Assembly: GCA_964495505.1 (NCBI GenBank)
Contig: CAZBVM010000001.1
Coordinates: 3,783 to 61,620, forward strand
From: an uncultured Candidatus Saccharibacteria bacterium
GTDB lineage: Bacteria; Patescibacteriota; Minisyncoccia; UBA10092
Reading direction: 5' to 3'
Length of the DNA: 57,838 bases
Positions 3,175 through 57,690 of this stretch are shown here, piece after piece (within the stretch, counting starts at the first letter, position 1; each line of letters begins with the position of its first letter). The notes below the pieces were generated by a model. The model ran no database searches. It was not told where the DNA came from and saw only the letters and a list, made by a program, of their open reading frames with translations. The translations under genes were made by a program, and so were the position numbers.

Positions 3175-4044
3175 TTAAGGTTGTCTTTTAGCAATTCGCT
3201 CGTTGCGTTCGCCTTCTGCCATAGCAAGAAACAGCTCCATTTGCCGTACTCCGGATAGGGTTTTTGCCATCTCGTCGTAAATACTCGCCTCAGAAGCATT
3301 TGAGTATTGGATAAGCAAGGTTCCCAAACGATCGCGCTCGGCCAAAAGACGGCTATTAATCACATCCATTATTTCTCTATAATCCCGCGCAGTTTCTTGA
3401 CCGGTTTCAAAACGCTCAATAGCTGGAATATCGACTAATAGTAGCGACCGGAATGGACGCCTGCCAATACCTTCGCCTTCTTCGGTGCTGCGAAATTTTT
3501 CTTCCTCCTCTTTCGCCAATTTTTTAATCATTTTTTTTGTTTCACTAAGCCATTCAATAAAATCCGGCTTTGACGGAACGCCATACCCGTCATGGCTAAA
3601 AAGAATATCGGCAGCTTTTTGGTAGTGCATATCCTGCCCAAGGTTTTTCTGCCGTTCCGTTTCTATTTTTTGATTTTTTTGGGTATCTTCGGATTCAAGC
3701 TCGTATGATTCCATAATATCTCTAATAAACTGGAGTTCGCCACGAGCGCTCTCAATAATTGAGAGGGCCAGTGTCGCGTTGCCGTTTTCTTTTTTTAATT
3801 CTTCTATCGCAAAGTCACTTGTTCTTTCAGCGTCGTTAACTATCTGAAGCGTACGATTGATTTGTTCACCACGTCTAAAATGCCTATCGTAGAATTCTCT
3901 CATTGCTTCTTTAACTACAGGGAAAGTTTCTCCAATTGATTCTTTTTCAAATTCCTGTTCAAAGATCGGTTGGCCAAGTTCAATACTGGCGCCGCTTTCC
4001 GGGTCTCTAATTTCCGGCCTTCCGATTTTTTCTGTTTTTGACAT
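3175..4044 (-). CDS. Hypothetical protein (acidic, helical, no recognised domain)
   Basis: 289-aa uninterrupted ORF, divergent from the nuclease gene. No family recognised by eye. Confidence 0.6.
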   Translation of the reverse strand: MSKTEKIGRPEIRDPESGASIELGQPIFEQEFEKESIGETFPVVKEAMREFYDRHFRRGEQINRTLQIVNDAERTSDFAIEELKKENGNATLALSIIESARGELQFIRDIMESYELESEDTQKNQKIETERQKNLGQDMHYQKAADILFSHDGYGVPSKPDFIEWLSETKKMIKKLAKEEEEKFRSTEEGEGIGRRPFRSLLLVDIPAIERFETGQETARDYREIMDVINSRLLAERDRLGTLLIQYSNASEASIYDEMAKTLSGVRQMELFLAMAEGERNERIAKRQP

Positions 4045-4750: not shown

Positions 4751-5091
4751 AAACAGGAGATCAATACTCTTGGACCAAGCATTCACAGTATAAAATGCGG
4801 TATTATGGCCTGTCGCCGCAGAGGATTAAAAGAATAATCCGTCATCCGGCGCGGATGGAAGAAGCTATAATTCCAAAGATGATTGCGGCAATGCAGCCCG
4901 CTGGTGGGAAAAATTATTCTGAAATCTGGGCGATATATCAACTCGCGAAGCACGATGATACCAAATACAAAATACAAAATACAAAATACAACCAGATTAA
5001 AGTAATTACCGCTTGGCGCTATCCGGGCAAAAGCCCGGCTCGTGACCCGATTCCTCAAGATATTTTAAATGAAATAAAATCTTTAATATAA
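4747..5091 (+). CDS. DUF4258-like small protein (possible toxin-fold), with in-frame heptamer-repeat insert
   Basis: ATGA overlap with the upstream nuclease. WTKHSQYKMRYYGLSPQRIKRII...IKVITAWRY resembles the DUF4258 pattern. KYKIQNTKY is encoded by (AAATACA)4. Confidence 0.5.
   Translation: MKTGDQYSWTKHSQYKMRYYGLSPQRIKRIIRHPARMEEAIIPKMIAAMQPAGGKNYSEIWAIYQLAKHDDTKYKIQNTKYNQIKVITAWRYPGKSPARDPIPQDILNEIKSLI
4963..4990 (+). repeat. (AAATACA)x4 tandem heptamer inside a CDS
   Basis: Read directly. The same heptamer array recurs in alaS at 20903-20937. Confidence 0.95.
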
Positions 5092-5145
5092 TAACAAGGT
5101 TTGTATAATGTAAATGCTATAGCATAATTATTATACAAATACATA

Positions 5146-5736
5146 ATGATAAAAATTTTAGGAAAAAAATTCTTTAAGCGACCAACTTTGGTTGTAGCAA
5201 AAGATTTATTGGGGAAATATTTAGTAAGGCGCATTGGAGGAAAAACGATGCGTTTTATGATTACCGAAGTTGAGGCGTATGATGGGTTTAAAGACAGGGC
5301 ATCGCATGCGTCGCGAGGAAAAACAAAAAGAAACGCCTCAATGTTTGAAAGTGGTGGTATTTGGTACGTTTATTTTACTTATGGAATGCACTATATGCTT
5401 AATATAGTAACGGGGCCGAAAAATTATCCGGCGGCAATTTTAATACGCAGCGTTGATGGCACTAATGGCCCGGCGAGAACTACCAAACAGCTAAAAATTG
5501 ATAAAAAATTTAATAATAAGATCGCTTCGCAAAAAACAGGTCTCTGGCTGGAAGATAATCCTATGTTAAAAATTGTCCGCCGAAAGCTTCGCATTCAGGC
5601 GGATCCGCCCAAATGCCATTCAGGGCTTTTGGCGGAAAAATTAAAAATTCGCCGATTGCCGAGAATCGGGGTAAATTATGCCGGCCCAATTTGGTCAAAA
5701 AAGAAATGGCGGTTCGTATTACAACAGGTGGTTTAG
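5146..5736 (+). CDS. mpg: DNA-3-methyladenine glycosylase (Mpg/AAG family)
   Basis: VAKDLLGKYLVRR...ITEVEAYDG..DRASHA..GKTKRN..MF..GG..YVYFTYGMHYMLNIV...AILIRS matches the AAG family pattern. Confidence 0.85.
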   Translation: MIKILGKKFFKRPTLVVAKDLLGKYLVRRIGGKTMRFMITEVEAYDGFKDRASHASRGKTKRNASMFESGGIWYVYFTYGMHYMLNIVTGPKNYPAAILIRSVDGTNGPARTTKQLKIDKKFNNKIASQKTGLWLEDNPMLKIVRRKLRIQADPPKCHSGLLAEKLKIRRLPRIGVNYAGPIWSKKKWRFVLQQVV

Positions 5737-17129: not shown

Positions 17130-18263
17130 ATGTCAAGACAACAGAAGAAAATTTTTGTAGCAATGAGTGGCGGCGTTGATTCCTCAGTCGCCGCTTTATT
17201 GTTGAAGCAAAAAGGATACGATGTTACCGGTGTTTATATGAAAGGATGGTCTTTAACAGACTGCGCCGAGGAAGACGTGATTGACGCGAGGCGCGTTGCC
17301 GGCGTTTTAGATGTTCCATTTTATGTTTTTGATTTTGAAAACGAATTTAAAAAAACCGTGGTTGATTATATGGTTGGCGAATACGCTGCCGGCCGGACGC
17401 CCAACCCAGATGTAATGTGCAACCGGGAAATTAAATTTGGTTTATTTCTTAAAAAAACGCTTAAACTTGGCGCTGACTATATCGCCACCGGACATTATGT
17501 TAACTTGGAAACGGAGTTTCCAAGTGGAAACTCCGTTTCCAAGTTGCTGCCGGCGAAAGATAGCAGTAAAGACCAGAGTTATTTTTTATGGACTCTAACG
17601 CAAGAACAACTTAAACATTGTTTGTTTCCAATAGGCGATTATACAAAGCCGCAAGTGCGGGCTATAGCTAAAAAATATAAATTACCGACGGCGGAAAAAC
17701 CTGATTCGCAGGGCGTTTGTTTTGTCGGCGAAATTAATGTTGCCGAATTTTTAAAGGAAAAACTCGGAAAAAATCCGGGACCGATAAAAACACTTAATGG
17801 TAAAACTATAGGAACTCACGACGGAGCGACTTTTTACACCATCGGCCAGAGAAGGGGAATCGGCATCAAAGGCAGTTTGCCGGGCGAACGAGGGAAAATT
17901 TATTATGTCGCGGCAAAAGATTTAAAAACCAATACCATCCTTGTAGCCGAAGGCAAAGACGAAAATTTATTCTCAGATAATTTAACGGTAAAAAACATCA
18001 ACTGGATTTCTGGAAGACAACCAAAATTGCCGTTAAATTGTTTTGCGCGCATCCGCTATCGCCAGCCGCTGCAACAAGCACGGCTTGTTGAATTTCCAAT
18101 TTCCAATTTCCAATTTCCAAAAAAATCTAAAACATCAAATTCGAATTTAAAAACTTTCAAAGTAATTTTTGATACTCCACAGCGTGCCATAACTCCCGGC
18201 CAAAGTGCGGTTTTCTATACAAAAAACGACACCATGCTCGGCGGCGGGGTTATTGACAGATAA
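17130..18263 (+). CDS. mnmA: tRNA 2-thiouridine(34) synthase MnmA
   Basis: PP-loop VAMSGGVDSSVAA, ATGHY, KDQSYFL, and C-terminal PGQSAVFY...LGGG. Confidence 0.93.
   Translation: MSRQQKKIFVAMSGGVDSSVAALLLKQKGYDVTGVYMKGWSLTDCAEEDVIDARRVAGVLDVPFYVFDFENEFKKTVVDYMVGEYAAGRTPNPDVMCNREIKFGLFLKKTLKLGADYIATGHYVNLETEFPSGNSVSKLLPAKDSSKDQSYFLWTLTQEQLKHCLFPIGDYTKPQVRAIAKKYKLPTAEKPDSQGVCFVGEINVAEFLKEKLGKNPGPIKTLNGKTIGTHDGATFYTIGQRRGIGIKGSLPGERGKIYYVAAKDLKTNTILVAEGKDENLFSDNLTVKNINWISGRQPKLPLNCFARIRYRQPLQQARLVEFPISNFQFPKKSKTSNSNLKTFKVIFDTPQRAITPGQSAVFYTKNDTMLGGGVIDR
17504..17543. repeat. Perfect 19-bp-arm palindrome inside the mnmA coding region
   Basis: cttggaaacggagtttcca-ag-tggaaactccgtttccaag. Encodes ...LETEFPSGNSVSKL... 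Confidence 0.95.
18091..18120 (+). repeat. (ATTTCCA)x4 tandem heptamer inside mnmA
   Basis: aatttccaatttccaatttccaatttccaa encodes EFPISNFQFP. Confidence 0.95.
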
Positions 18264-18914: not shown

Positions 18915-18930
18915 ATCTTTCAATTTTCAT

Positions 18931-18970
18931 TTTTCGGAAATCAGCAACGATCGTTCGGATATTACGAAAA
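18931..18970 (+). repeat. Conserved 40-nt box, copy 1
   Basis: ttttcggaaatcagcaacgatcgttcggatattacgaaaa. Copies are at 33999-34038 (inverted) and 53563-53602. The centre is the palindrome AACGATCGTT (CAACGATCGTTG in copies 2 and 3) and the ends are inverted (TTTTCG...CGAAAA). Confidence 0.9.
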
Positions 18971-18986
18971 TTAAAAATTAAAAATT

Positions 18987-19016
18987 ATAATAAATTAGCT
19001 ATAGCTAATTTATTAT
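18987..19016. repeat. Perfect 30-bp palindrome, copy 1
   Basis: ataataaattagctatagctaatttattat. It follows (AAAAATT)~3. Confidence 0.95.
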
Positions 19017-19019
19017 ATA

Positions 19020-19076
19020 AGCGCGGTTTTTTACACTAAAACCGGCGAAATGCTCGGCGGTGGAATTATTGAATAA
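19020..19076 (+). pseudogene. Orphaned, diverged duplicate of the mnmA 3' end
   Basis: It encodes SAVFYTKTGEMLGGGIIE*, against SAVFYTKNDTMLGGGVIDR* at 18204-18263. 13 of 18 residues are identical and 6 differences are synonymous. There is no upstream coding continuity. Confidence 0.7.
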
Positions 19077-19538: not shown

Positions 19539-19636
19539 ATTTCAAATTAATATCCATGTCACATCATTTGTCCGATCGGACAAATAGTGTTACGCTTTGT
19601 TGATTTTTCTGTTATAAATCTGATAAAATTAGTCGC

Positions 19637-21406
19637 ATGACTTCTAAAGAAATAAGGGAAAAATTTTTAGAATTTTTTGAAAAGAGGGGACATAAAGTCG
19701 TTCCGGCTTCTTCGCTTGTGCCGGAGGGCGATCCGTCGGTGCTTTTAACGACCGCCGGAATGCAACAATTCAAGCCGTATTTTACCGGTGACAAAGATCC
19801 AATGACAGATTTTGGTTCGCGGAGGACAGTTTCAATACAAAAATCTTTTCGCACCTCCGATATTGATGAGGTGGGAGACGAGTCGCATCTTACGTTCTTT
19901 CAAATGTTAGGCCAGTTTTCCTTCGGCGATTATTTTAAAAAAGAAACTATTGAGTGGACTTTTGAATTGCTAACTAAAATTTTTAGAATTGCCGAAGAAC
20001 GAATATCGGTTTCGGTTTTTGAAGGGGATAAAAAAATTCCTAAAGACCAAGAATCGTATGACGCTTGGTTGCGATTTTTGCCATCAGATAGAATAAAACT
20101 TGGGACAAGAGAAGAAGGTAATGTTTGGGGTCCGGCCGGGCCGGAAGGCCCATGTGGTGCCTCAAATGAGGTTTACGTTGATAATCTTGAAGTGGCGACG
20201 CTCGTGTTTATGGAATATTATTGCAAAAGCGATGGAAAAATTTCTCCATTGCCCAAAAAGGGAGTTGATGTCGGTTGGGGATTTGAGCGGCTTACTAAAG
20301 TAGTCCAAAACACGCCAACAATTTTTGAAACCGATTTATTTGAACCCCTCATTCAGGCAATCCCTCATAAAGATATAGAAAATGAAGCGCGTTCAGTTAG
20401 AATCATTGCCGATCATATAAGAGCCGCTAATTTTCTTATTGCCGATGGAGTTTTACCGTCTAATATGGCCCAAGGTTATATTTTGCGCCGACTTTTGCGT
20501 CGCGCCATTCGCCATGGCCTTATTTTAAATCTTGATAAAAACTTTTTAATTCCTTTATCGCAAAAAGTTATAGAAATATATAAAGAATTTTATCCTGAAT
20601 TATCTATTAAAAATAATGATATTCTAACAGTTATAGAAAAAGAAGAAGAAAAATTTAGGAAAACTCTCAAAAACGGATTAAGAGAGCTCGAAAAAATACT
20701 GAAAACAAGAACTGATAAAATAATTTCAGGGAACGACGCTTTTTATCTTTACGAGAGCTATGGCTTTCCAATGGAGCTGACGCGGGAATTGGCAACAGAA
20801 AGAGGATTTTCCATTGACGAATCTGGTTGGGAAACCGCGCTTAAAAAACACCAGGAAATTTCCCGTGCCGGAGCAGGAAAGAAGTTTGGCGGCCATGGAC
20901 TTATACAAAATACAAAATACAAAATACAAAATACAAACCAAAAAGATGTTGAAAAAATTACGCGACTCCATACCGCAACCCATCTTTTGCATCAGGCGCT
21001 TCATGATGTTTTGGGGAAAGAGGCGGATGTCAAACAAATGGGATCAGACATTACGCCGGAGCGCACCCGTTTTGATTTTACTTTTCAGAGAAAATTGACG
21101 GTGGAAGAAATTAAAAAAATTGAAAATATCGTCAATGAAAAAATAAAAATGAATTTGCCAGTTTACGCGCAAAAAATGCCTAAAGAAAGAGCTCTAAAAT
21201 TAGAGGCCAGGGCATTTTTTAAAGAAAAATATCCTGATGAGGTCAATGTTTATTCCGTTGGCGATTCAGATTTAAGCAAGGCCTACTCAAAAGAATTTTG
21301 CGATGGGCCGCATGTTAAGGGTACCGGCGAAATCGGCCGTTTTAAAATTATAAAAGAAGAATCTTCCAGCGACGGGGTAAGAAGAATTAGGGCTGTTGTG
21401 GAATGA
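19637..21406 (+). CDS. alaS: Alanine--tRNA ligase (short form, ends after editing domain)
   Basis: FLEFFEKRGHKVVPASSLVP, FFQMLGQFSFGDYFK, GPCGASNE, editing HTATHLLH and CDGPHV. Contains an (ATACAAA)5 insert. Confidence 0.93.
   Translation: MTSKEIREKFLEFFEKRGHKVVPASSLVPEGDPSVLLTTAGMQQFKPYFTGDKDPMTDFGSRRTVSIQKSFRTSDIDEVGDESHLTFFQMLGQFSFGDYFKKETIEWTFELLTKIFRIAEERISVSVFEGDKKIPKDQESYDAWLRFLPSDRIKLGTREEGNVWGPAGPEGPCGASNEVYVDNLEVATLVFMEYYCKSDGKISPLPKKGVDVGWGFERLTKVVQNTPTIFETDLFEPLIQAIPHKDIENEARSVRIIADHIRAANFLIADGVLPSNMAQGYILRRLLRRAIRHGLILNLDKNFLIPLSQKVIEIYKEFYPELSIKNNDILTVIEKEEEKFRKTLKNGLRELEKILKTRTDKIISGNDAFYLYESYGFPMELTRELATERGFSIDESGWETALKKHQEISRAGAGKKFGGHGLIQNTKYKIQNTNQKDVEKITRLHTATHLLHQALHDVLGKEADVKQMGSDITPERTRFDFTFQRKLTVEEIKKIENIVNEKIKMNLPVYAQKMPKERALKLEARAFFKEKYPDEVNVYSVGDSDLSKAYSKEFCDGPHVKGTGEIGRFKIIKEESSSDGVRRIRAVVE
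20903..20937 (+). repeat. (ATACAAA)x5 tandem heptamer inside alaS
   Basis: Encodes IQNTKYKIQNT. Same unit as 4963-4990. Confidence 0.95.
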
Positions 21407-32796: not shown

Positions 32797-33885
32797 ATGA
32801 TTACTTTACTTATATTTATTTTAATTTTAGTAATTTTGGTTTTAGTTCATGAATTCGGCCATTTTATTATTGCCAAAAAAAGCGGTTTAACGGTGGAAGA
32901 ATTTGGTTTTGGTTTTCCTCCGAGAATTTTCAGCTGGAAATCCGGTGAAACAATTTATTCAATAAATCTTTTGCCTTTGGGCGGTTTCGTTAAAATTTTG
33001 GGCGAAAATGACGGAGAGACCGGTAATCCAAAAAGTTTTGCTTCAAAATCAGCCGGGGTGCGCGGCTTGATTACTTTTGCTGGAGTCGCGATGAATTTCG
33101 CGCTCGGCGCGCTACTTTTAATTATTGGATTTTACATCGGATTGCCTCAAGTTTTAAGCAAAGAAACTGAGGCGCTTGCTAAAAATATTCAAATTCAAAT
33201 TGTTGCGATAGCTCACGATTCACCGGCGGAAAAAGCGAACTTAAAGCTCGGCGATTCCATAGAAGGTTTTTCCGCCAAAGGCGAGATCTCGCCCCTTTGG
33301 GGCGGAGAAGAAGTTTCAATTCTTCAAGGTTTCATCGGTGAAAATAAGGGCAAAGAAATAATTTTAAAAATTAAAAGAGGGGAAGAAAATTTAGAAATAA
33401 AAACCATTCCCAGAGTAAATCCGCCGGAAGGAGAAGGCGCTTTGGGAGTAGCGCTGGCAAAAACAGGAATCGTTTCTTATCCATGGTATCAGAGCATTTG
33501 GCTGGGCGTAAAATCAGCGTTTATTATAACCTGGGAAATAATAAAAGGATTTTTTGGACTGATTAAAAATCTTGTAACTGCCGGGAAGATACCCCAAGAA
33601 GTTTCCGGCCCGGTGGGGATTGCGGTATTGGCCGGTCAGGCGACGGCTCTCGGGTTTGTTTATCTTTTGCAACTAGTGGCTTTAATTTCACTTAATCTCG
33701 CTGTTTTAAACTTAATTCCTTTTCCGGCTTTGGACGGCGGCCGGTTGTTATTTTTAGGCATAGAAAAAATCAAGGGCAGTAAGGTCAACCCCAAGATTGA
33801 AAACGCCATTCATTCAGTCGGCATCGTTTTGCTCCTCACCCTCGTCGCGCTGATAACCTACAGGGATATCTTAAAACTTCTGTAA
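32797..33885 (+). CDS. rseP: RIP site-2 metalloprotease RseP (M50) with PDZ
   Basis: HEFGHFIIAK, NLLPLGGFV, and C-terminal NLIPFPALDGG. Confidence 0.92.
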   Translation: MITLLIFILILVILVLVHEFGHFIIAKKSGLTVEEFGFGFPPRIFSWKSGETIYSINLLPLGGFVKILGENDGETGNPKSFASKSAGVRGLITFAGVAMNFALGALLLIIGFYIGLPQVLSKETEALAKNIQIQIVAIAHDSPAEKANLKLGDSIEGFSAKGEISPLWGGEEVSILQGFIGENKGKEIILKIKRGEENLEIKTIPRVNPPEGEGALGVALAKTGIVSYPWYQSIWLGVKSAFIITWEIIKGFFGLIKNLVTAGKIPQEVSGPVGIAVLAGQATALGFVYLLQLVALISLNLAVLNLIPFPALDGGRLLFLGIEKIKGSKVNPKIENAIHSVGIVLLLTLVALITYRDILKLL

Positions 33886-33938
33886 CTTTCGTATATCGCA
33901 TGATCGTTTGTTATACGACATTAAGTTTAATCAACTGT

Positions 33939-33968
33939 ATAATAATTTAGCTATAGCTAAATTATTAT
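33939..33968. repeat. Perfect 30-bp palindrome, copy 2
   Basis: ataataatttagctatagctaaattattat. It differs from copy 1 at positions 8 and 23, which are mirror positions, so it remains a perfect palindrome. Confidence 0.95.
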
Positions 33969-33998
33969 AATTTTTAATTTTTAATTTTTAATTTTTAA

Positions 33999-34038
33999 TT
34001 TTCGTAATATCCCAACGATCGTTGCTGATTTCCGAAAG
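33999..34038 (-). repeat. Conserved 40-nt box, copy 2 (inverted orientation)
   Basis: The reverse complement reads (c)tttcggaaatcagcaacgatcgttgggatattacgaaaa. It is joined to the palindrome by (AAAAATT)~5. Confidence 0.9.
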
Positions 34039-34099
34039 ATGAAAAATAAATAAACCGCTGGGCGAACCATGCGGTAGTGTAATCAGAGGCGTTTAAATG

Positions 34100-34342
34100 T
34101 TATTTAAAAAGCCTTTCTTTACTCATATAAACGTAATTCGGAGGATATTCCGCAGGCGGGATGTCGTCAAGAGGCATGTCAGTTACAAAAGCCACAATGG
34201 CTTCAGACGCCAATTCTTCTAATTTTCTCTCTCTTTCGGAACATGCGAGACATTTTTCTCCGTGTTCGATATATTCATCTAGCTTACGATCAAGTTCCCG
34301 CATAGGTAAGCTATAAAAATTCTTATGTTCCTCGCACGTCAT
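34100..34342 (-). CDS. Hypothetical protein (orphan, 80 aa, CxxC-containing)
   Basis: ATG after GGAGGGG, with its own near-consensus promoter. No recognised domain. Confidence 0.5.
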   Translation of the reverse strand: MTCEEHKNFYSLPMRELDRKLDEYIEHGEKCLACSERERKLEELASEAIVAFVTDMPLDDIPPAEYPPNYVYMSKERLFK

Positions 34343-34380
34343 TTGGCCCCTCCATATTTATAGTCTAATTGTTTATTATA

Positions 34381-34409
34381 AGTATATAACAATTATTTAT
34401 CATTGTCAA
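34381..34409 (-). promoter_or_regulatory. Near-consensus sigma70 promoter (TTGACA-N17-TATACT) for the 80-aa ORF
   Basis: The minus strand reads ttgacaatgataaataattgttatatact. Confidence 0.55.
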
Positions 34410-52916: not shown

Positions 52917-53501
52917 ATGCGCGTAATCATTATCGCGGCATTTGCGATTTTTATTATTATTCCTTCTGTGTTGTCTGCGATTGACGAAAAGCCACCGCTT
53001 ACTGTGAGTATTGTCGTGGATCCGCTTCTTTACGACCGCTTTAAGAGTCCGGAGGAGCTTGAGGTACACCTTCTCAACATCATCAGCCGCGCCTCGCTCA
53101 TCTTCAACGCAGATATCGGCAGACAACTGGTGCTTGACGTAATCGAGGTCGGTCTTCCGCCGAATGCGGGACTCTCAATTGACGACAAGAGCGCTTTTGC
53201 GTGGTTGAAGGAGAAAGTAAAGAGACATCCGTCCCGATTCTGGGTTTTCCTCATTGACCGTCCGCTTGCTTCATGCAACATTTCAGGCACCTGGAGCGGT
53301 TGCGGGATGATGAATAATTCCATCTCCATAGTAGTGTACAATTCTGATCTTGCCCTTACCCTTCGGAATCTTCTTCACGAGCTTGGCCACAATTGCGGGG
53401 CGGATCACAGCGAATCAAAAATTTCTATTATGTATCCATGGGGCGGGAACAACGTGACCTACAGTGACAAAGTGGTCATCATTCGGGATACATGCGAGTG
53501 A
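52917..53501 (+). CDS. Secreted metzincin-type zinc metalloprotease (GC-rich orphan)
   Basis: Signal peptide, HELGHNCGADH (HExxHxxGxxH), and the Met-turn-like SIMYPW. ATG follows AGGAGG. Confidence 0.8.
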   Translation: MRVIIIAAFAIFIIIPSVLSAIDEKPPLTVSIVVDPLLYDRFKSPEELEVHLLNIISRASLIFNADIGRQLVLDVIEVGLPPNAGLSIDDKSAFAWLKEKVKRHPSRFWVFLIDRPLASCNISGTWSGCGMMNNSISIVVYNSDLALTLRNLLHELGHNCGADHSESKISIMYPWGGNNVTYSDKVVIIRDTCE

Positions 53502-53562: not shown

Positions 53563-53602
53563 TTTTCGGAAATCAGCAACGATCGTTGGGATATTACGAA
53601 AA
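53563..53602 (+). repeat. Conserved 40-nt box, copy 3 (no microsatellite or palindrome after it)
   Basis: ttttcggaaatcagcaacgatcgttgggatattacgaaaa, starting 61 nt after the metzincin stop. Confidence 0.9.
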
Positions 53603-53637
53603 CTAAATATCAAATTAGTATATCAAATTTTATTTTA

Positions 53638-53673
53638 AACGCACTAAAATCCTATAGGTCATTCGTGCGTTCA
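53638..53673 (+). repeat. 36-nt hairpin repeat, copy A
   Basis: aacgcactaaaatcctataggtcattcgtgcgttca. Copy B is at 57655-57690. Confidence 0.85.
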
Positions 53674-57631: not shown

Positions 57632-57654
57632 ATTAATTTGATAAATATTTTATG

Positions 57655-57690
57655 AACGCACTAAAATCCTATAGGCAGTTTATGCGTTCA
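57655..57690 (+). repeat. 36-nt hairpin repeat, copy B
   Basis: aacgcactaaaatcctataggcagtttatgcgttca. Confidence 0.85.

Follow-up and report, generated by a model that had tools for sequence, protein, structure and literature searches.

PaaX-like proteins and the palindromes that bracket their genes: candidate docking sites between rseP and proS in a tiny groundwater bacterium

Introduction

What are two adjacent palindromes, joined by a perfect A/T heptad array, doing between rseP and proS? The question arises from a 57,838-nt stretch of contig CAZBVM010000001.1 of an uncultured Candidatus Saccharibacteria bacterium, from here on called the window, and the element concerned lies at positions 33886-34038 of it. 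Unless a contig is named, all coordinates are those of the window. A first-pass annotation, made from the letters of the window, had described this locus as the second full copy of a module that includes a short open reading frame (ORF), and had read its palindrome as kept symmetrical by selection, either as a hairpin or as a dimer site. Our analysis leads to a different view of the module. Palindrome and box, as we call the second, 40-nt palindrome, are probably docking sites of two PaaX-like dimers, and the pair between rseP and proS is probably a remnant, left solo at a hot spot of recombination; this reading is built from the comparison of sequences between related genomes.

The genome that holds the window (G000) belongs to a tiny groundwater bacterium from the Candidate Phyla Radiation, or CPR, and comprises 642 kb in 49 contigs at 40% GC. 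Other genomes of the same genus are referred to as G001-G003, and contigs of relatives carry L-numbers.

Results

The first palindrome, at 33938..33969 with no strand assigned, is a perfect 32-bp sequence, TATAATAATTTAGCTATAGCTAAATTATTATA, of the type TATAAT-N6-GCTATAGC-N6-ATTATA, which we call type 1; its arms are of variant B/B (AATTTA/TAAATT). The box, on the minus strand at 33999..34038, is an imperfect palindrome with the core CAACGATCGTTG and stands here as a solo copy. Between them lies a spacer of variable length, (AAAATTA)x5, on the minus strand at 33968..34002. A degenerate, shorter copy of the box, box' (33886..33918, no strand), directly follows the rseP stop codon; its local alignment with the box scores 31, which was reached by 0 of 500 shuffles.

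The key to the 32-bp palindrome is found elsewhere in the genome. Two type-1 copies bracket a gene for a 184-aa PaaX-like protein between leuS and glmS (G000 C3:18367-18921), and the same gene is bracketed on both sides in G001, in G003 and in the small contig L038. In G002 and G006, leuS and glmS are adjacent with a terminator alone between them, without the gene and without the palindromes; the nearest paralog in G002 is 48% identical, and its downstream palindrome has different arms around the same core. The genus-wide distribution of type 1 follows that of the 184-aa gene, with G000, G001 and G003 carrying both and G002 neither. Type-1 copies number nine in G000 (plus one degenerate), four in G001, five in G003 and none in G002, so that they occur in three of the four genus genomes, as does the box; among 57 more distant relatives neither the type-1 palindrome nor the box was found. 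Two contigs, L038 and L054, are filed under Nanoarchaeota and Pacearchaeota bins. L038, under Nanoarchaeota, has the type-1 and leuS/PaaX-like arrangement of this bacterial genus, L054 carries a type-1-like palindrome only, and both may be mis-binned. In G001 (C10, L034, 5560-5872), an expanded and partly N-masked tandem repeat with a unit of about 30 nt, tagaaagatattttaatattacc, lies between the 184-aa gene and its downstream palindrome.

The sites are often placed at gene 3' ends, and several type-1 copies precede start codons: they end 6-11 nt before the starts of their own PaaX-like gene, murD and mpg (methylpurine DNA glycosylase), while the distance is 24 nt for map and about 105 nt for glmS. 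The copy at mpg is a type-1-like palindrome with asymmetric arms at 5104..5135 (no strand), ending 11 nt before the ATG at 5147. A sigma-70 promoter, with TATAAT as -10 or as TTGTAT-N17-TAATTT, was considered for these sites and dropped as their principal explanation, because all four bases are found at position 2 among relatives and the distance from type-1 end to the start codon of the orthologous 184-aa gene ranges from 4 to 41 nt in four genomes. Under the docking interpretation, the type-1 site would be an operator, at its own gene as well as at mpg, map, murD and glmS, where it lies 10-105 nt upstream.

What kind of protein does the bracketed gene encode? The 184-aa protein matches PF20803 (PaaX_M) with an E-value of 4.7e-23 and 81.5 bits against a cut-off of 24. 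With TIGR02277 (PaaX), residues 38-152 match model positions 26-136 (E-value 2.6e-10), a score far under the family cut-off, and a weak SlyA match covers residues 28-89, with AF2 pLDDT values of 48-68 in the N-terminal region. PaaX_C (PF08223) gave no match, and the protein ends at residue 184. Foldseek searches with its low-confidence model returned Cas2 (5zyf, TM-score 0.62-0.68 on target) and E. coli PaaX (8a39) as top matches, and also the PaaX-like Rv0674. In the alignment of the PaaX-like family, the Cas2-type residues FD(I/V)PE and QxSV are invariant.

This protein is one of many. There are seven PaaX-like paralogs in G000 and 9-11 in each other genus genome, and the family occurs in 36 of 61 relatives. 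Each paralog has its own palindrome of 30-50 bp, built around a 6-bp core such as CTATAG, CGATCG, CTCGAG, CGGCCG or CATATG. The bracketing was assessed by comparing the upstream and downstream 180-nt flanks of 34 genus paralogs, with the 95th percentile of cross-gene pairs as threshold. Same-gene flanks scored above it in 29 of these (median 21, versus 11 for cross-gene pairs). On a distant Paceibacterota chromosome, too, a homolog adjoins a perfect palindrome, with quite different arms. Within the window, a second type, AACGCAC-N-CCTATAGG-N-GTGCGTT, is present in two copies 4 kb apart (53637-53673 and 57653-57690); this type 2 brackets the PaaX-like genes that occupy the rseP-proS spacer in G001 and G003, and its cognate gene was not found in the G000 assembly.

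The box follows the same rule, with a gene of its own. In the metagenome contigs L120, L122, L131 and L142, directly repeated boxes about 730 bp apart bracket another 184-aa PaaX-like paralog. A close ortholog of this paralog was not found in G000-G003, where the best matches reach 54-60% identity, and the boxes of G000 are therefore solo. One locus has even been caught in three versions: a 128-aa ORF followed by box-paaX-box in L132, a 170-aa ORF followed by box-paaX-box in L122, and the 128-aa ORF with a single box in G003. The central pair of the box reads C..G, C..C or T..C in different copies, without co-variation. A further solo box in G003 (C6, L028, around 3560-3800) lies 12 nt after a tRNA gene; after it come TTGACA-N17-TAATGT and a GC-rich stretch that looks structured. 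A viral origin was rejected: the box has no match in IMG/VR, and the 50 IMG/VR matches to a loose palindrome pattern are unrelated, none of them having type-1 arms.

The element at 33886-34038 can thus be described as two adjacent putative protein-docking palindromes joined by a slippage-prone A/T spacer. The 32-bp palindrome would be the site type of the 184-aa paralog between leuS and glmS, and the box that of another paralog, found in relatives only. We infer that the cognate proteins bind these sites and that they do so as dimers with one winged helix per arm; any regulatory effect is likewise inferred.

But is it symmetry of the DNA as such that is conserved, rather than a binding site? 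The first-pass annotation had seen that the palindromes of the two composites at 18923..19017 and between rseP and proS differ at mirror positions, and this is borne out: both copies are perfect, and they differ only at positions 9 and 24 of 32 (8 and 23 in its count of 30). G003 has the B/B arms at the orthologous site, and L138 has them at its mnmA locus. Because the orthologous G003 palindrome has the same arms, this mirror pair predates the species split and is not new here. The change had been taken as evidence for selection on symmetry, which is supported in part: the nine box-linked copies are all perfect or one base off. It does not extend to the whole family, since in five of the nine G000 copies the arms differ at 3-4 positions without compensation, just what the first-pass annotation had named as refuting it; copies in relatives differ at 1-6. 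Moreover, the type-1 copies that flank genes hold the same asymmetric form, TATAATAAATTAGCTATAGCATAATTATTATA, in direct orientation across four genomes.

Folding energies bear on the same question. As DNA hairpins, the perfect A/A and B/B palindromes both reach -9.2 kcal/mol (z versus shuffles -3.7 and -4.3) and the box -7.2 kcal/mol (z -3.6), whereas the conserved gene-flanking form reaches -2.4 kcal/mol (z -0.36) and the G000 form upstream of the PaaX-like gene -0.9 kcal/mol (z +0.46). Since asymmetric copies are common and fold like shuffles, hairpin formation is not what the type-1 family conserves. The idea that palindrome and box act as hairpins, be it as cruciform, terminator or RNA-stabilising stem-loop with symmetry kept by selection for base pairing, could draw on the stability of the perfect copies and of the box, on the location of many sites at gene 3' ends and on the mirror-complementary changes treated below. 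However, the copies conserved in four genomes are the ones that do not fold, the arm differences in G000 are uncompensated, and co-variation is absent from the central pair of the box. Furthermore, the stems are AT-rich and come after separate GC-rich terminators, and an Rfam scan of the whole window returned three tRNAs only and nothing at the element. As such, we regard hairpins as an improbable explanation. From the first-pass alternative of a hairpin or a dimer site, it is the dimer site that gains, through the bracketed PaaX-like gene and the matching distribution of gene and sites; the hairpin is not general. With the conserved gene-flanking palindromes holding a stable asymmetry and failing to fold, a dimer-docking site fits best.

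Three mirror-complementary double changes are nevertheless present among the box-linked copies: A-T at 9/24, a change to G/C at 2/31 in G001, and one to C/G at 2/31 in L116. Their number far exceeds the expectation from independent substitutions, and some symmetrising force on the box-linked copies is real. Mirror-image substitutions would fit two identical half-sites read by one dimer. In G001, the same end change (TGTAAT..ATTACA type) is seen at three different loci, and such concerted change therefore points to a trans-acting reader, which again speaks against hairpins. At 9/24, both variants coexist in one genome, G000. Quasi-palindrome correction by template switching is established in E. 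coli and phage T4 mutagenesis; from a one-sided change it would produce, in one event, a mirror-complementary pair like those at 9/24 and 2/31, and templated correction from arm to arm is likely the simplest mutational route to the 9/24 pair. Unlike docking, this is a route of mutation and carries no function, and it leaves the stable asymmetry of the gene-flanking copies unexplained.

How far, then, does the repeat extend? The locus had been called a second full copy of a module, and this did not survive comparison. The first copy of the composite, on the plus strand at 18923..19017, consists of a box (18931-18970), (AAAATTA)x3 (18967-18987) and a palindrome of variant A/A (18986-19017). In inverted orientation it matches the copy between rseP and proS over 72 nt (93% identity) and 51 nt (96%), far beyond chance. 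The ORFs next to the two copies, of 175 and 80 aa, are unrelated (BLASTP E-value 0.3). Among the four box-bearing loci of G000, homology sets in some 8 nt ahead of the box and runs as far as the distal edge of the palindrome. At the third copy (53563..53673, plus strand), a solo box (53563-53602) is followed by the type-2 palindrome at 53637-53673; here, without a type-1 palindrome, homology stops soon after the box. The recurring unit is thus a non-coding stretch of about 100-115 nt that comprises the 40-nt box, the A/T linker and the 32-bp palindrome, and no box' was found on the far side of the other composites, only at rseP-proS. Directly after the palindrome of the first copy, 19018-19076 is a dead copy of the 3' end of mnmA. 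As the same remnant follows the orthologous palindrome in L116 and L124, this rearrangement is older than the species.

The separation of gene and palindromes can be observed directly. Contig L115 is collinear through proS, promoter, ORF, terminator and rseP, and in pairwise alignment it is missing window positions 33884..34043 (no strand), a 160-nt block composed of box', 19 nt, palindrome, linker and box; the junctions show only AA microhomology. Because L115 carries the ORF and its terminator without this block, the ORF and the palindrome pair are separable, and the element between rseP and proS is not one gene module. That ORF in L115 is 82% identical and, on this groundwater contig, the sole relative of the 80-aa ORF returned by a large protein search.

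A rival possibility is that a unit which moves or recombines has the palindromes as its cis-acting ends. The PaaX-like/Cas2-like protein would recognise its own palindrome and drive movement, excision or cassette exchange, and the composite would be a non-autonomous remnant marking a landing place of such units. Several observations agree with this. Almost every paralog gene is bracketed by direct palindrome copies, the unit is exactly what distinguishes an occupied leuS-glmS site from an empty one, and box-paaX-box and the solo box are found at the same locus in different organisms. In addition, the 160-nt block absent from the close relative is bounded by box' and box, near-identical composites stand at three unrelated loci of G000, palindromes of several types accumulate in the same variable spacers, and the Cas2-type residues are invariant. 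However, Pfam and NCBIfam profile searches found no transposase-type or recombinase domain in the 184-aa protein. Terminal inverted repeats and target duplications were not seen either, and the AA at the L115 junction is the only microhomology. Deletion between 40-nt direct repeats and cassette swaps by homologous flanks would require no dedicated enzyme, box' accompanies one composite only, the leuS-glmS unit is syntenic in three species and so not visibly moving now, and copy numbers are low. We consider this scenario unlikely, though it is the one to which we would give most weight after docking. A bolder version by analogy with REP/RAYT, in which PaaX-like proteins and palindromes form an undescribed self-propagating unit of the CPR that nicks or recombines at the palindrome, scatters solo sites and makes the orphan-gene hot spots at rseP-proS and mnmA-alaS, would be a little less likely still.

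Other classes of element were also considered. A chromosomal dif/Xer site was rejected on account of the 9-10 copies and the paralog-specific arms. An attC site, a miniature inverted-repeat transposable element (MITE) and a tRNA-like terminator are all unsupported on inspection of the sequence; for the MITE, the ends of the composite are unrelated, and the present/absent junction has no target-site duplication, only the AA microhomology.

The heptads invite a further explanation. The count of about five units here against about three in the first copy, given by the first-pass annotation, is exact: Tandem Repeats Finder reports a period of 7, 5.0 copies and 100% match (score 70) at 33968-34002, written as (TAATTTT)x5.0 on the forward strand, against x3.0 at 18967-18987. 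On inspection, the first copy reads TTACGA-N18-TATAAT, and one might suppose a phase-variation switch in which the heptads set the spacing between a -35-like TTACGA of the box and the TATAAT of the palindrome, on at three units (18-nt spacer) and off at five. The two perfect arrays of 3.0 and 5.0 units would suit such a switch. Relatives do not bear it out. Measured from the ACG of the box to the palindrome, the linker is 19 nt in the first G000 copy, 33 nt in the second and 28 nt on contig C8, 19 and 35 nt on contigs C2 and C19 of G003, 20 nt on contig C3 of G001, 35 nt in both L116 and L124, 20 nt in L140 and 32 nt in L138. Differences at orthologous loci are not multiples of 7, and most linkers are A-tract-rich and not arrays. 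Furthermore, relatives have another base in place of the essential A of TATAAT (TCTAAT, TGTAAT, TTTAAT), and at two of the three loci there is nothing downstream to transcribe. A phase-variation switch is thus very improbable. Helical phasing of box and palindrome was likewise rejected, the linkers of 19-35 nt having no common phase, and the perfect arrays of G000 look like local slippage in a tolerant spacer. Perfect heptad arrays also occur in frame within coding sequence of the window: (ATACAAA)x5 in the gene before mpg (4958-4991) and in alaS (20903-20937), and (AATTTCC)x4 in mnmA (18091-18120). The same in-frame arrays match scattered places in related genomes, and the one in the gene before mpg is absent from G003.

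The setting of the element supports the idea of an insertion hot spot. Whether rseP and proS are normally adjacent had been left as a check by the first-pass annotation; they are neighbours in all four genus genomes, and the spacer holds different genes in each. G000 has the 80-aa orphan ORF with the palindrome pair, G001 a 193-aa PaaX-like gene without the composite, G002 a 150-aa ORF on the other strand, and G003 a 207-aa PaaX-like gene, a 120-aa ORF and an orthologous box-linker-palindrome. Between the orthologous copies of G000 and G003, the box is identical at 38 of 40 positions and the palindrome at 31 of 32, with rseP at 79% and a diverged linker; homology between these genomes resumes at 34373. 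The mnmA-alaS spacer is as variable, and in G001 the composite stands alone there, just upstream of alaS. Palindromes of several types accumulate in the same variable spacers. Between mnmA and alaS, G001 (C3, L027, 2001-2140) has three palindromes in a row without ORFs, one of the TTCCGATCGGAA type, a box and a type 1, the first being the site type of a G003 paralog. In the window itself, CATTTGTCCGATCGGACAAATAG, the type that brackets the PaaX-like paralog of contig C44, lies at about 19563-19597, just upstream of alaS, and the mnmA-alaS spacer therefore holds three site types, namely box, type 1 and that of C44.

The remaining parts of the rseP-proS locus belong to the orphan gene. All parts listed by the first-pass annotation are indeed present in the sequence, from promoter, Shine-Dalgarno sequence and ORF to terminator, box, heptads and palindrome, the terminator being read by eye only. 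On the minus strand, the 80-aa ORF with three Cys occupies 34100..34342 (from the ORF list). Its expression signals lie at 34349..34409, also on the minus strand, with GGAGG at 34353-34349, 6 nt ahead of the ATG, the -10 TATACT at 34386-34381 and the -35 TTGACA at 34409-34404; TTGACA-N17-TATACT agrees with the consensus at 11 of 12 positions. The stretch lies within a divergent promoter region shared with proS, kept in relatives that have other genes here. Downstream (34040..34075, minus strand), a terminator-like hairpin read from the sequence, ACCGC-A-TGG/CCA-GCGGT (34054-34075), is followed by a T-rich run (34040-34053); a simple terminator scan made no call for this bulged hairpin. The motif gatta.ac / cccagcggttt, which had been reported as common to the terminators of the 80-aa and the 104-aa ORFs, is indeed shared by both, and is also found at C8:14487 and in relatives, so the hairpin belongs to a terminator family common to several orphan-gene cassettes. 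Neither the 80-aa nor the 175-aa or 104-aa ORF has a match in Pfam, NCBIfam or PADLOC. Before the third copy stands a metalloprotease-like ORF of 194 aa (52917-53501) with an HELGH motif, whose weak matches to zinc metallopeptidases M10/M12 all fall below Pfam thresholds. With a terminator and a box at its end, it makes one more orphan-like cassette.

Discussion

Several findings weigh against docking sites of PaaX-like dimers as the explanation. The structure model of the 184-aa protein is of low confidence (pLDDT 60). Ordinary autoregulation would not usually place an operator on each side of nearly every paralog, and two of the three composite loci have nothing downstream to regulate. Identity over the whole 40 nt, including non-symmetric positions, together with the common flanks, looks like copying by descent, unlike a regulon that arose site by site. 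A dimer alone does not predict mirror double changes with both half-site variants in one genome. Moreover, as their cognate gene was not found, the G000 boxes may be inert relics, or they may be read by another paralog. In the docking interpretation, the two palindromes between rseP and the orphan gene would be solo sites, brought there by duplication or recombination and lying between convergent transcripts, where a bound protein would act as a roadblock at most.

How does this arrangement compare with known systems? PaaX is the repressor of the phenylacetate pathway (E. coli W structure 8a39; Pfam PF07848, PF20803, PF08223). The 184-aa protein, a truncated relative, shares with it the central Cas2-like domain; it also aligns, under the family cut-off, to the N-terminal part of the PaaX model where the winged helix lies, and its low-confidence structure model matches the fold of 8a39. 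Inverted-repeat DNA sites next to the own gene are a further likeness. Unlike PaaX, it is short, at about 184 aa, and has no PaaX_C ligand domain; paa genes are absent, and its family counts 7-11 paralogs per genome of 0.5-0.8 Mb, each with its own palindrome on both sides and solo copies elsewhere, to which binding is predicted.

In its layout of many paralogs, long bracketing palindromes of their own, solo copies and variable spacers, the system resembles REP/RAYT and site-flanked cassettes, though not by protein type. As with REP/RAYT, a single-copy gene is flanked by cognate palindromic repeats with dispersed intergenic copies, often at 3' ends, and different paralogs pair with different repeat families. 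The protein here is Cas2-like with a putative winged helix, matches PaaX_M and Cas2 only, and is no HUH Y1 transposase. The copies that flank a gene are repeated in direct orientation, each genome has 4-10 copies, and inverted REPIN doublets were not seen. Integron attC cassettes and the XerC/D pdif modules of Acinetobacter plasmids are likewise small single-gene units bounded by imperfect palindromes with a short core, vary between relatives at one locus, and leave solo sites that persist after gene loss. The cassettes described here differ in having their own promoters and terminators. Unlike in an integron, they are single and scattered among housekeeping genes with no tandem array, and the box core CAACGATCGTTG is contiguous, as opposed to the separated R''/L'' and L'/R' of attC; no integron integrase or attI was noted here, in analyses that included no search aimed at intI. 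In addition, one recombinase could not read all site types, because the arms differ completely between types.

Almost nothing is known about gene regulation and genome plasticity in CPR/Patescibacteria. A search for literature joining 'PaaX' with 'Parcubacteria' or 'Cas2-like' found none, the pairing with 'Patescibacteria' or 'Candidate Phyla Radiation' having only been screened. The genomes compared here point to one expanded PaaX-like family as a candidate for a major sequence-specific DNA-binding system of these organisms, with candidate protein-site pairs that can be read directly from the genome, and the type-1 sites upstream of glmS, murD, map and mpg suggest a small regulon. There is also a real but unproven chance that these genes and palindromes constitute a selfish unit of a new kind. 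The palindromes mark variable spacers in which orphan genes turn over, and they are either passengers or agents of that exchange; the answer would show how minimal genomes gain new genes.

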